Positions 1-4,286 of a DNA stretch of 46,881 nucleotides are shown one piece after another. The stretch's first letter is position 1. Each line of letters begins with the position of its first letter. Under the pieces are notes generated by a model. It had not been told where the DNA came from, searched no databases, and saw only the letters and a program-made list of their open reading frames with translations. The stretch lies in NCBI GenBank assembly GCA_903900935.1, contig CAIUOX010000011.1, positions 1 through 46,881 of the forward strand. The letters run 5' to 3'. This stretch comes from an uncultured bacterium (GTDB taxonomy: Bacteria > Patescibacteriota > Minisyncoccia > Phycocordibacterales > PALSA-1337). Position numbers and translations under genes: made by a program.

Positions 1-82
1 CCTGCCGAGTCCTTTTTAGTAGTTTTAATCATTTGGATTTTGCTCGAAATAGTTTCGAACTTTGTCCAGTAAGCACCGCCAA

Positions 83-110
83 TGATATGTACCCCATAAA
101 GTGGACACAG
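83..110 (+). mobile_element. IS3-family-like terminal inverted repeat (orphan end, no transposase)
   Basis: TGATATGTACCCCATAAAGTGGACACAG: starts with TG, then a C-run, then GGACA, as in IS3/IS150-group ends. No partner end or transposase seen nearby. Confidence 0.55.
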
Positions 111-123
111 ATTTTATGATAAT

Positions 124-684
124 ATGGTGTTCATGAAACTAGATAAAGAAAAAGTTAGAAACCTTGCATTCATAGACGGACAAAATCTACACATGGGCAC
201 AGCAAAGCGGAAAAAAGATCCGTGGCATATTGATCTTGCGCGTTTTCTAGTGTATCTCAAGGAGAAATACAATGTAGATGAAGCTTACTATTTTCTTGGA
301 TATGTTCAAGAAGAAAATCAAGAATTGTATGATGAAATACAGAAGGCTGGTTTCATTCTTAAATTTCGAGAACATAATCCAGCTATGATCGGAAAGAAAA
401 AAGGTAATGTTGATTCGGATATCATTTTCCATATAATGAAAAAGATGTATAAGAAAGAAGATTTTGAAAAGATTGTCCTTGTATCAGGAGATGGTGATTA
501 CAAGCTGGTGGTGGATTTCATGATAGAAGAAAAAAGATTTGTGAAAATATTGTTTCCAGATCTTGATAGAGCATCTTCTCTCTATAAAAAACTCTCAAAC
601 AAATACTTTGCTAATTTGGATAATAAAGATATTAGAACAAAAATCACTATCAGTAACCTGGGTAAAAAGAAAAGGGTGCCTTAG
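124..684 (+). CDS. NYN domain (LabA/DUF88, PIN-like) putative ribonuclease
   Basis: Motifs FIDGQN, KKGNVD and LVSGDGDY; acidic active-site residues intact. Confidence 0.9.
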   Translation: MVFMKLDKEKVRNLAFIDGQNLHMGTAKRKKDPWHIDLARFLVYLKEKYNVDEAYYFLGYVQEENQELYDEIQKAGFILKFREHNPAMIGKKKGNVDSDIIFHIMKKMYKKEDFEKIVLVSGDGDYKLVVDFMIEEKRFVKILFPDLDRASSLYKKLSNKYFANLDNKDIRTKITISNLGKKKRVP

Positions 685-718
685 GTAATTAACCGTTTGG
701 ACCCCTTTTCGTCGTAAT
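664..718 (-). ncRNA. Putative small structured RNA convergent to the NYN gene
   Basis: Minus-strand promoter upstream; stem GAAAAGGG/CCCUUUUC (703-710 with 669-676) followed by UUUUU on the minus strand only. Confidence 0.5.
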
Positions 719-724
719 ACCTAT

Positions 725-753
725 ATCCTAGCTAACGGTTCGCTAAAAGTCAA
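725..753 (-). promoter_or_regulatory. sigma70-type promoter pointing into the NYN 3' end
   Basis: TTGACT (753-748), 17-nt spacer, TAGGAT (730-725). Confidence 0.65.
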
Positions 754-2501: not shown

Positions 2502-4286
2502 ATGTCCCATAGACAAGAATATCCAAAAGTCACCATTATCGACGTACTCAAAGAGTATGGCCGTGTTGCCAAAAAGTATTGGTTTGCTCTTATAGTTGCA
2601 ATTATTTCTACTATTGTGCCGATTATATCAGCTAGTATAATCGCGCCACTATTCTATAAGAAATTTTTTGATATCTTGACTCAAGGAGCTAATCCTCTTG
2701 TCGCAACTCCTGAACTAATAAATATTATTCTCTTCATATTGTTGATGAATGTTATTGCGTGGATAAGTTTCCGCATATATTCATTTGTTATTGTTCACAT
2801 ACAAACAGGTATTATGAATAATTTACGCCAGGATGCTTATGATTACATCATTGGTCATTCGTATGCATTTTTTAGTAATACATTCAGTAGTTCATTGGTG
2901 CAAAAGATCAATCGATTCATGCGTTCGTTTGAGCGTGTTACTGATAGATTTTTCCAAGAAATTATACCAATCATGGTCAGAGTTATTGGTGTGTGTATTG
3001 TTCTTTGGTATATACAGCCGATCCTCACTCTTGCCATTGTTATTTGGATGGTTGTATTTCTATTACTTTCATTTGTATTATCACGTTGGAAAATACCATA
3101 TGATATCAATTCTGCAAAAGTGGAGTCTTTGGCTACTGCCACAATGGCTGACAGCCTTTCCAATCATGCCACAATACAGATGTTCAATCGTTTTTCTTAC
3201 GAATCCAGTCTTTTTGGTATTGCAAATACTACTTATACCAAAGCACTCAGTGCAAAATGGAATGTTTCCAATGTGATCGATGCGATACAAGCAGTCCTCA
3301 ATGTTGCTACAGAATTCTTGATCTTTTATGTGGCTATCAAGTTTTGGGGAATGGGCATGATATCAGTAGGAACATTCGTATTGATCCAGATATATATCAT
3401 CGGTCTTATGAACAATTTCTGGGCATGGAGTCGTATATTGCGTGATTTGTATGAAGCCTTTGCTGATGCTAAAGAAGCTGTTGAAATCATGAAACTTTCT
3501 CACGGAATAAAGGATGCTCCTCATGCAAAACCACTCACAGTTACTTCTGGTGCTATTGATTTCAAGGATATTGGTTTTCATTTCAATGAAGGCTCAGGAG
3601 TCTTGAATGGTATTGCCTTGAATATAAAACCTGGCGAACGAGTTGCTCTTATCGGTCCTTCTGGAGCAGGCAAGTCAACAATGGTTAGATTGTTATTACG
3701 TTTGTATGATATCCAAAAAGGCTCTATTTCTATTGATGGCCAGGATATTACACATGTTACTCAGGGAAGTTTACGTGAGTCGATTAGTTTTGTGCCACAA
3801 GATCCGATACTGTTCCATCGTTCACTCAAAGATAATATTAAATATGGCAAAACTGATGCAACTGACGAGGAGGTTATATGTGCTGCAAAACTCGCACATT
3901 GTCATGAGTTTATTGAGACTCTTCCGAATGGTTATGATACCTATGTAGGTGAGCGTGGTATCAAACTTTCTGGTGGTGAACGTCAGCGTGTTGCGATTGC
4001 GCGAGCAATACTCAAGAATGCACCGATTCTTGTGCTTGATGAGGCAACATCAAGCCTAGATTCACATTCAGAAATGCTCATTCAAGATGCACTTGATGTT
4101 CTCATGAAAGATAAAACGGTAGTTGTTATTGCGCACAGACTTTCAACTATCAGTAAGATGAATCGTATCGTTGTGCTTGATCAAGGATCTATTATTGAGC
4201 AGGGTAGTCATGATGAGCTTCTACGCAAAAATGGTCTATATGCAAAATTGTGGTCATTGCAATCGCAAGGATTCATCAAAAGCTAA
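2502..4286 (+). CDS. ABC exporter, fused permease/ATPase (MsbA/MdlB-like)
   Basis: N-terminal TM domain; GPSGAGKST, LSGGERQR, LVLDEATS, IAHRLST. Confidence 0.93.
   Translation: MSHRQEYPKVTIIDVLKEYGRVAKKYWFALIVAIISTIVPIISASIIAPLFYKKFFDILTQGANPLVATPELINIILFILLMNVIAWISFRIYSFVIVHIQTGIMNNLRQDAYDYIIGHSYAFFSNTFSSSLVQKINRFMRSFERVTDRFFQEIIPIMVRVIGVCIVLWYIQPILTLAIVIWMVVFLLLSFVLSRWKIPYDINSAKVESLATATMADSLSNHATIQMFNRFSYESSLFGIANTTYTKALSAKWNVSNVIDAIQAVLNVATEFLIFYVAIKFWGMGMISVGTFVLIQIYIIGLMNNFWAWSRILRDLYEAFADAKEAVEIMKLSHGIKDAPHAKPLTVTSGAIDFKDIGFHFNEGSGVLNGIALNIKPGERVALIGPSGAGKSTMVRLLLRLYDIQKGSISIDGQDITHVTQGSLRESISFVPQDPILFHRSLKDNIKYGKTDATDEEVICAAKLAHCHEFIETLPNGYDTYVGERGIKLSGGERQRVAIARAILKNAPILVLDEATSSLDSHSEMLIQDALDVLMKDKTVVVIAHRLSTISKMNRIVVLDQGSIIEQGSHDELLRKNGLYAKLWSLQSQGFIKS

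Follow-up and report, generated by a model that had tools for sequence, protein, structure and literature searches.

The window that we analyzed is a whole 46.9-kb contig (CAIUOX010000011.1 of assembly GCA_903900935.1) from an uncultured bacterium of the Patescibacteriota, whose genome of 644 kb is 97% complete and whose related records carry Saccharibacteria or Patescibacteria labels. Near the left end of this contig, a gene for a protein of the NYN nuclease family faces a predicted small RNA gene that is encoded on the opposite strand and directed back at it. The open reading frame (ORF) of the NYN gene opens at position 124 of the plus strand, and alignment with the closest homologues of the protein favors the ATG at 133 as the likely start. 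The gene (133–684, plus strand) ends with the TAG stop codon at 682–684. The ORF from 124 to 684 matches the Pfam NYN family (PF01936) over residues 16–144 with 53.2 bits (cutoff 24.2) and an E value of 6.2e-14, in agreement with a preliminary description of this DNA that had reported an intact NYN gene.

The predicted small RNA gene spans positions 720 to 664 of the minus strand. Its sigma-70-type promoter (753–725, minus strand) is composed of the −35 box TTGACT (753–748), a 17-nt spacer, and the −10 box TAGGAT (730–725). Judging from the promoter geometry and the U-tract, the RNA should start near A718 and end in the U-run at 668–664, and its length is predicted to be about 55–57 nt. A single-stranded 5′ tail (720–711), in which columns 3, 4, 9, 10, and 11 of our alignment A5 vary little or not at all, leads into a long hairpin (710–669) and then by the U-tract of five residues (668–664). 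Within the hairpin, stem P1a pairs 710–703 with 676–669 (8 bp) and stem P1b pairs 700–699 with 680–679, with the mismatches 702/677 and 701/678 lying between them. The 18-nt apex (698–681) includes a GG/CC mini-stem (694–693/685–684) that closes a loop at 692–686, and the NYN stop codon falls within this apex. On the plus strand, the hairpin offers only UUUU, located within the stem and followed by CGU.

These features largely bear out the preliminary description. The 8-bp outer stem, the inner GGU/ACC stem, and the U-tract that it listed are all present in the minimum free energy fold, and the overlap that it put at about seven of the last NYN codons is indeed seven, if the stop codon is included. 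The reverse promoter that it placed at 753–725 is likewise present, but to call this site near-consensus was an overstatement for a match at 9 of 12 positions. A scan of the window for the terminator consensus called no intrinsic terminator, probably because the scan permits loops of at most 8 nt and the apex is longer. Taken alone, the features of the window are at chance level, and the support for an RNA gene comes from comparison with other genomes.

A protein search at E ≤ 1e-10 among 61 related genomes found NYN genes in 25 genomes, 36 matches in all and as many as four in one genome. Behind each of the 30 matches whose 3′ ends were inspected, a hairpin precedes a brief run of conserved sequence, beyond which the opposite strand reads a −10 and a −35 box. 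The position of the NYN stop codon slides from before to after the hairpin among these relatives, and conservation therefore acts at the level of nucleotides rather than protein. A covariance model built on 29 relatives (R1) recovers the window RNA (664–720, minus strand; 55.5 bits, E = 4.9e-11) as the sole good match in the window genome, and it yields 48 matches at E ≤ 0.01 in the 61 genomes. For 34 of the 36 NYN matches, an RNA is situated no more than about 110 nt away, and all 34 of these RNAs are convergent with the NYN gene (counts made without regard to kinship). Of the two NYN matches lacking an RNA, one is a fragment that contains a stop codon and comes from a short contig, and the other is an NYN domain embedded in an ORF of 1549 aa. 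Five weak R1 matches (E from 8e-4 to 9e-3) resemble generic hairpins, and one of them is the start of a signal-peptide coding region.

A pattern scan of species genomes, with one genome per species, confirmed at least 592 NYN relatives, and we studied the best 80 of these loci more closely. Most of the 80 belong to Saccharibacteria, Paceibacterota/Parcubacteria, Peregrinibacteria, and similar groups. A few of their contigs are labeled otherwise, and contigs from metagenome-assembled genomes may be mis-binned; locus L116, however, comes from a cultured Bacteroidota isolate, Parasediminibacterium sp. JCM 36343, and has an R1 score of 59.9 bits. Model R1 gave 66 matches on the best 80 loci, all on the strand opposite to NYN, and 61 of the 80 loci have such a match at the NYN 3′ end. 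The five further matches are second copies, either in tandem doublets (L101, L119) or upstream (L074, L109, L083). The 19 loci that R1 misses carry a diverged RNA, which we call type C and which has its own promoter. These RNAs were detected less formally, 16 by an apex pattern and three (L134, L144, L146) by eye and alignment A7; R1 scores type C at the noise level of 9–13 bits, even with filters off. Together, these methods place an RNA beside all 80 of the best 80 NYN loci (61 by R1, 16 by apex pattern, and three by eye and alignment). Tandem RNA units also occur behind a single NYN gene in L101 (2024–2079 and 2136–2191), L119 (2021–2077 and 2132–2187), and L173 (approximately 3500–3590), and each unit in L101 and L119 has its own promoter.

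The aligned copies reveal selection on a base-paired structure. RNAalifold predicts 13 pairs from 29 copies, with compensatory changes at 11 of them. Among 64 copies of the type represented by the window (type B), stem P1 is 94.5% paired and shows compensatory changes at 7 of 11 pairs, and the long stem beats slid controls on five of five measures and all 500 shuffles on three. Stem P2 is 92% paired, with two invariant G-C pairs. For type C, 89% of cells are paired in 15 copies, and one pair is present as CG, GC, and UA in five copies each. Other signals distinguish the RNA strand from its complement. When stems are read on that strand, G-U outnumber A-C combinations 75 to 25, and 62 of 82 distinct copies have the lower fold energy in the RNA sense. 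Apical loops of the UNCG type in most type A copies, and of the GNRA type in some variants, are found on the RNA strand only; both kinds of loop are stable.

The promoter, of the general form TTGAC-17-TAnnAT, is conserved together with the fold. A promoter matching the consensus at 9 or more of 12 positions occurs at the conserved location in 79 of 93 copies, and 53 of 93 reach at least 10 of 12, a level attained by 3 of 465 shuffles and 2 of 93 control windows. The −10 box ends 4–6 nt before the model start in 86 of 93 copies, and six residues (T1, T2, and G3 of the −35 box; T1, A2, and T6 of the −10 box) are each kept in 84–91 of the 93. Thus, both the hairpin and the reverse promoter that the preliminary description suggested looking for behind NYN homologues are retained, together with the U-tract, beside nearly every one, and the stems covary. 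As a separate observation, the sequence TGTGGATTA is located at 761–769 of the window, a few bases upstream of the RNA −35 box, and it matches at 8 of 9 positions what we take to be the DnaA-box consensus. DnaA-like boxes are present at the same place in several relatives and are not found in most of the broader set.

The general anatomy of these RNAs comprises the single-stranded 5′ tail of approximately 10 nt, P1a, a mismatch or internal loop, a P1b clamp, the apex, and the U-tract. P1a is A/U-rich at its base and G/C-rich above, and P1b covaries between types; the pair next to P1b is a U-C mismatch in the window copy and in its two closest relatives. Type A RNAs have as their apex a covarying stem of 5–7 bp with a UNCG-like loop and accompany NYN proteins that are 29–43% identical to that of the window. 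Types B and C share a near-invariant GAACGG-N7-CCUAAG motif and accompany NYN proteins of at least 52% identity. Among the relatives, all 12 with at least 52% identity have type B RNAs, and all 17 with at most 43% identity have type A or intermediate RNAs. The RNA types therefore appear to follow NYN clades, to the extent that these identity classes represent clades.

Three further ideas regarding the RNA structure fared less well. The preliminary description had proposed a pseudoknot between the 5′ AUUA and the loop UAAU, which the comparison does not support: only 54.7% of cells are paired in the 64 type B copies, and two of the four pairs are unpaired in 43–44 of the 64. The apex bears some likeness to a kink-turn, the sarcin-ricin loop, or an anticodon loop, but none of these comparisons was judged convincing. 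Pairing of the RNA tail or U-rich end with the 5′ end of the NYN mRNA, when sought by eye, gave only low-complexity matches rich in A and U.

The location of the RNA relative to its partner gene is not fixed. RNA and NYN gene are convergent in 76 of the best 80 loci, and the antisense overlap seen in the window is, by geometry, present in these 76 and absent from L110, L113, L111, L137, and L048. In L110 and L113, the RNA is directly upstream of NYN on the same strand, where the RNA U-tract is followed at once by the extended −10 element of NYN and, 7 nt on, by its ATG. In L111 and L137, the RNA is downstream of NYN on the same strand. In L048, the RNA and an NYN gene (PF01936, E = 1.8e-10) are arranged divergently. 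The sequence and the fold of the RNA are retained in all five. Because the RNA is kept in same-strand and divergent layouts, it is more than a terminator for NYN and can do without antisense overlap. From these arrangements, the RNA behaves as a putative trans-acting partner that needs only adjacency to NYN. In an animal-associated clade with type C RNAs, the order is RNA-NYN in L110 and L113 versus NYN-RNA in L111 and L137, with both genes on one strand throughout. Each order is a circular permutation of the other, which would fit a circular cassette intermediate.

The NYN protein has sequence and fold features of its family. Residues D18, N21, D97, D123, and D125 (numbered from residue 1 of the ORF opening at 124) are invariant in 21 aligned homologues, and their catalytic role is presumed from the family. 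An AlphaFold2 model (pLDDT 84.1) has as its best Foldseek match in the Protein Data Bank (PDB) the entry 2QIP (E = 1e-7; TM-scores 0.66/0.75), an uncharacterized LabA-like protein (VPA0982) from Vibrio parahaemolyticus that is also the sole match in a profile search of PDB sequences. The next Foldseek matches, which are weak, are FEN-like 5′ nucleases with DNA as substrate (T5 5′-exonuclease and ExoIX). The window protein is predicted to be a nuclease whose substrate may be RNA or DNA. At 183–186 aa, it would be a soluble enzyme rather than a small hydrophobic peptide.

Transcription of the NYN gene probably depends on a different kind of promoter. We read an extended −10 element (TG-n-TAATAT) from the window sequence at 117–125 on the plus strand, ending 7 nt before the ATG at 133. 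This −10 box agrees with TATAAT at only 4 of 6 positions, and it was missed by the script that scored homologous loci. In those loci, a −10 box with at least 5 of 6 matches ending 4–10 nt before an in-frame start is found in 59 of 109 (a raw count); 44 of the 59 have the TG extension, and −35 boxes are mostly poor. NYN genes thus often carry an extended −10 element that stops 6–8 nt short of the ATG, as at 117–135 of the window and in locus L110 (1487–1506). Because the −10 box ends only a few nucleotides before the start codon, these data suggest that NYN mRNAs are leaderless and are made from a promoter type unlike that of the RNA gene. The window genome also encodes a second, distant NYN protein with 25% identity, whose gene (contig C41) lies between rpsO and pnp and has no R1 match beside it. 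After this gene and before pnp, there is a long inverted repeat (L004 2029–2150; genome G000, contig C41) with arms of approximately 23 nt spaced approximately 75 nt apart, which is possibly a pnp leader structure.

Overall, comparison of these genomes establishes a conserved, strand-specific, and structured candidate small RNA gene that is tied to this NYN subfamily as its apparent obligate neighbor. On the same kind of evidence, NYN and RNA evidently move as one mobile unit between unrelated sites and lineages. When ORFs within 1.5 kb were clustered for 109 loci, no third gene was shared; the largest cluster after NYN covers six loci. The distribution is patchy (25 of the 61 related genomes), and a single genome can hold several cassettes with different RNA types, as G006 does with types B and A. 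NYN relatives also occur on 16 predicted viral contigs, with an R1 match in two and the apex pattern in three, and a similar hairpin was recognized by eye in four more among the nine viral contigs whose NYN is at least 37% identical. At E ≤ 1e-10, collections of plasmid and phage records contain no NYN relative.

Long direct repeats flank a number of the cassettes. Repeats were found on both sides of NYN in 29 of 135 loci, a raw count in which some loci are duplicated and many repeats are short or distant. The clearest brackets include a 113-nt repeat with 99% identity and a separation of 742 nt in L005/L071 (L005 662–774 and 1517–1629) and a 151-nt repeat with 98.7% identity in L012 (1197–1346 and 2122–2272). 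Others measure 111 nt (L126), 100 nt (L127), 278 nt (L136), and 152 nt (L106), and further examples are present in L142, L082, and L086, with an overall range of 55–278 nt and up to 99% identity. In L041, 180-nt repeats (1193–1372 and 1564–1743) are two copies of the 5′ end of the neighboring gene, and they enclose an NYN gene that has lost its middle together with an RNA and promoter that are intact. The brackets suggest insertion with long target duplication or, alternatively, Campbell-type integration of a circle.

The window itself retains a trace of such a border. Positions 73–110 (plus strand) match the NYN-proximal part of the L005 bracket repeat and include a 19-nt motif (90–108) just upstream of the NYN promoter. 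This motif recurs in L005 (752–770 and 1607–1625), L011 (2061–2079), and L030 (2140–2158), and it is found, in either orientation, at cassette borders of other genomes. The contig begins only 123 nt ahead of NYN, so that the true left border of the window cassette is out of sight, and the contig break may be linked to the repeat that carries the motif. On its right, L005 is flanked by a conserved gene that is common, and the L005 repeat sequence is also found elsewhere in three other genomes. In the window, the cassette is followed by a gene (804–2459) for a 551-aa secreted protein with a C-terminal PF01471 peptidoglycan-binding domain and internal repeated segments (repeat families D1 and D2). 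Its relatives have at most 50% identity and are found in 9 of 92 other genomes of the genus.

A few RNAs are separated from any intact nuclease gene. Nine strong RNA matches lie away from the 36 NYN matches, and eight of them lack an intact NYN. Two are beside NYN remnants (L041, L042), and one is the divergent case of L048, which is not a true orphan. The remaining six adjoin unrelated genes, namely those for a HAD hydrolase, an AHSA1-like protein, a surface Ig protein, a type IV secretion coupling protein, and two proteins without a family. The orphan in L066 (genome G024, contig C46; 1578–1635) is convergent with the T4SS-DNA_transf/TrwB coupling gene, a context of the conjugation type. Two essentially complete genomes, G004 (97%) and G049 (100%), carry the RNA with no NYN match at E ≤ 1e-10. 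Conversely, no NYN gene of this subfamily was found to lack an RNA, apart from the fragment and the 1549-aa ORF noted above.

The interpretation that we favor, and to which we give about an even chance of being right, is that the pair forms a mobile two-gene cassette in which an RNA working in trans on the NYN protein keeps the nuclease inactive, as in a type III-like toxin–antitoxin (TA) or defense module. The orientation-free linkage, the behavior of a selfish element, the existence of orphan RNAs but of no orphan nuclease, and the invariant catalytic residues fit such a module, in which the RNA would most simply be an inhibitor. The preliminary description had also read the pair as a nuclease/RNA module of the TA or defense kind; the conserved unit, the covariation, and the minus-strand asymmetry speak for that reading, and the function that it assigns is presumptive. 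In the proposed mechanism, the PIN-like NYN nuclease would be made from a probably leaderless mRNA, and an RNA of approximately 57 nt would be transcribed from its own sigma-70-type promoter and ended by the hairpin and U-tract. The well-conserved two-hexamer promoter might ensure that a short-lived RNA outnumbers a stable nuclease, and the clade-specific apex (types A, B, and C) could serve as the recognition surface. In the convergent layout, the hairpin would double as a two-way terminator, and the antisense overlap with the last NYN codons would be incidental. More tentatively, and with rather less than an even chance of holding in full, we propose that the cassette is a new RNA-antitoxin (type III-like) or defense class in which the NYN nuclease is checked by a single-hairpin RNA, different apexes prevent cross-talk between paralogues, and a unit of approximately 750 bp spreads through Patescibacteria, other phyla, and viruses by an unusual kind of insertion that duplicates 50–280 nt of target, possibly via a circular intermediate.

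Other explanations deserve consideration. The RNA might be a cis-encoded antisense regulator similar to those of type I systems, pairing with the 3′ end of the NYN mRNA through the two-way hairpin and thereby causing decay or blocked expression while leaving the protein untouched. The convergent overlap in the window, in all 34 linked copies among relatives, and in 76 of the 80 broader loci agrees with such a role, as does the full complementarity predicted for RNA and NYN mRNA over approximately 45 nt, and several type I systems use 3′-overlapping RNAs. Selection may even favor the overlap, given how prevalent it is. However, the RNA keeps its sequence and structure in the same-strand loci L110, L113, L111, and L137 and in the divergent L048, the sliding stop codon leaves no conserved overlap with the coding region, and orphan copies maintain both promoter and fold. 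Moreover, an RNA that is automatically antisense needs no conserved apex or tail, and a 183–186-aa enzyme is not a small membrane peptide. We consider antisense control unlikely for these reasons. Among the roles listed in the preliminary description, that of a pure antisense regulator is weakened by the same-strand order in 4 of 80 loci and by L048. Another proposal, an ordinary two-way NYN terminator next to a chance promoter-like site, draws on the window alone: its 3-kb region contains 11 promoter-like sites of 9/12 where 13.3 are expected from shuffled sequence, the minus-strand RNA folds with z = −1.74, and no terminator is called. A promoter conserved at a fixed distance, covarying stems, and a unit that takes other positions relative to NYN make this proposal barely credible.

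It might also be argued that promoter and hairpin constitute a portable DNA module, such as a terminator/promoter or a recombination junction in cassette shuffling, and that the short RNA is a by-product. The long direct repeats that bracket cassettes, the apparently circularly permuted gene order with type C RNAs, and the RNA terminator that abuts the NYN promoter in L110 are in line with this, and T4-type phages are said to carry comparable promoter–stem-loop cassettes. A purely DNA-level module is nonetheless improbable, because the G-U asymmetry and RNA-type tetraloops point to selection on an RNA fold; in addition, the unit keeps to a single protein subfamily and is not spread over assorted cassettes, and transcription from the promoter would at most loci run just into the hairpin, with no gene to serve. 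Finally, instead of inhibiting NYN, the RNA could take part in an NYN ribonucleoprotein that has a positive function, whether as cofactor, scaffold, or substrate, in the manner of Ro60 with Y RNA or of a processing enzyme with its RNA. Strict co-occurrence whatever the orientation fits this explanation, the conserved tail and the clade-specific apex are suggestive of specific recognition, rsr and Y-RNA genes are likewise neighbors in bacteria, and a CRISPR-associated NYN protein that processes RNA has been reported. But the RNA has no variable guide-like segment, its patchy, multi-copy, horizontally moved, and context-free spread fits a selfish or defense module better than a housekeeping particle, and orphan RNAs with intact promoters in near-complete genomes that lack NYN are left unexplained by a pure cofactor. 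This role seems to us a rather unlikely one, although it and antisense control are the main alternatives. Beyond the prevalence of convergence, several points count against a trans-acting inhibitor. In the window copy, the plus strand folds slightly better than the minus strand (−21.9 kcal/mol, z = −2.65, versus −18.6 kcal/mol), and the stem carries two mismatches. A required cofactor would account just as well for an NYN that never occurs without its RNA, many NYN/LabA proteins of bacteria are not known to be toxins, and PADLOC returned only two weak HerA matches (E = 0.002–0.003). Related genomes are not independent samples, alignment A4 was fitted to model R1 and is biased toward its structure (although the MAFFT alignments A1, A5, and A7 agree with the picture that it gives), and both the protein fold and the RNA organization differ from those of type III systems, as described below.

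No entry in the resources that we searched describes this pair. Rfam 15 gives no match to the window RNA at gathering score, nor at E values up to 10 over positions 1–1200, and no match at the RNAs of L005, L020, L110, L116, and L041 at E values up to 1. A sub-threshold match to ohsC_RNA (36.3 bits, gathering score 50, E = 0.021) is located at L005 2578–2657, approximately 1 kb from the cassette; ohsC_RNA is a family of antitoxin small RNAs. NCBIfam assigns no meaningful family. The literature covered, which excludes subscription journals and supplementary files, yielded no description of an NYN-RNA pair, and the term “NYN” occurs zero times in a 2026 preprint on prokaryotic noncoding elements. 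The statement in the preliminary description that no system of this layout is known for NYN proteins thus agrees with Rfam 15 and with the literature covered.

If the RNA does control the nuclease, then the combination of a PIN-like toxin with a single-hairpin RNA would join the few known families of RNA antitoxins. It would also rank among the accessory modules most widely distributed in the ultra-small Patescibacteria (at least 592 loci with one genome per species), a group in which very little is known about gene regulation and phage defense. The absence of the RNA from Rfam 15 means that current annotation overlooks a conserved RNA gene, and the cassette in a cultured Bacteroidota isolate makes direct experiments possible. 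In addition, the long target duplications at some cassettes hint at an undescribed way of moving.

Several known systems share some of these characteristics. The cassette NYN resembles members of the LabA/NYN family (PF01936, 2QIP) in domain, fold, and conserved acidic residues, but no partner RNA is described for that family in the literature covered. Bacterial Ro60 (Rsr) and Y RNA genes are located side by side in either orientation, and the cassette is similar in that a protein and a small structured RNA are adjacent, again in either orientation. However, the protein and the RNA are both unrelated to those of the Ro60 pairs, and we know of no report of Ro60 and Y RNA genes as mobile multi-copy cassettes. 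Type I TA systems with 3′-overlapping antisense RNAs include bsrG/SR4, txpA/RatA, and par of pAD1. Convergent transcription, the 3′ overlap, and a shared two-way terminator hairpin are found in these systems and are predicted for the convergent form of the cassette, whereas the approximately 185-aa enzyme and the five loci in which the overlap is lost and the RNA is kept are not expected of them. Thus, the cassette is not a classic type I system.

Another parallel in organization is offered by type III TA systems, in which a tandem-repeat RNA is located upstream of a ToxN-type toxin gene (Blower et al. 2012, PMC3401426). Like ToxIN, CptIN, and TenpIN, the cassette links a nuclease-type protein to an independently made small structured RNA, and it is mobile, patchy, and multi-copy, with a labile RNA presumably in excess over a stable enzyme. 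L110 and L113 even share with type III the order promoter, RNA, terminator, and nuclease gene. However, this RNA-upstream order is found only in these two loci, with a single unit each, and positions 1–800 of the window contain no tandem repeats and have the RNA downstream and convergent. Compared with the Kid/MazF-like fold of ToxN, the cassette protein is NYN/PIN-like, and in place of a tandem array that is cut into pseudoknots, the RNA is a single hairpin of approximately 57 nt. A dedicated RNA promoter and a mostly convergent layout with respect to the nuclease gene also set the cassette apart from type III. By the criteria of Blower et al. (2012), the cassette is therefore outside the ToxIN, CptIN, and TenpIN families, although it may still work as they do.

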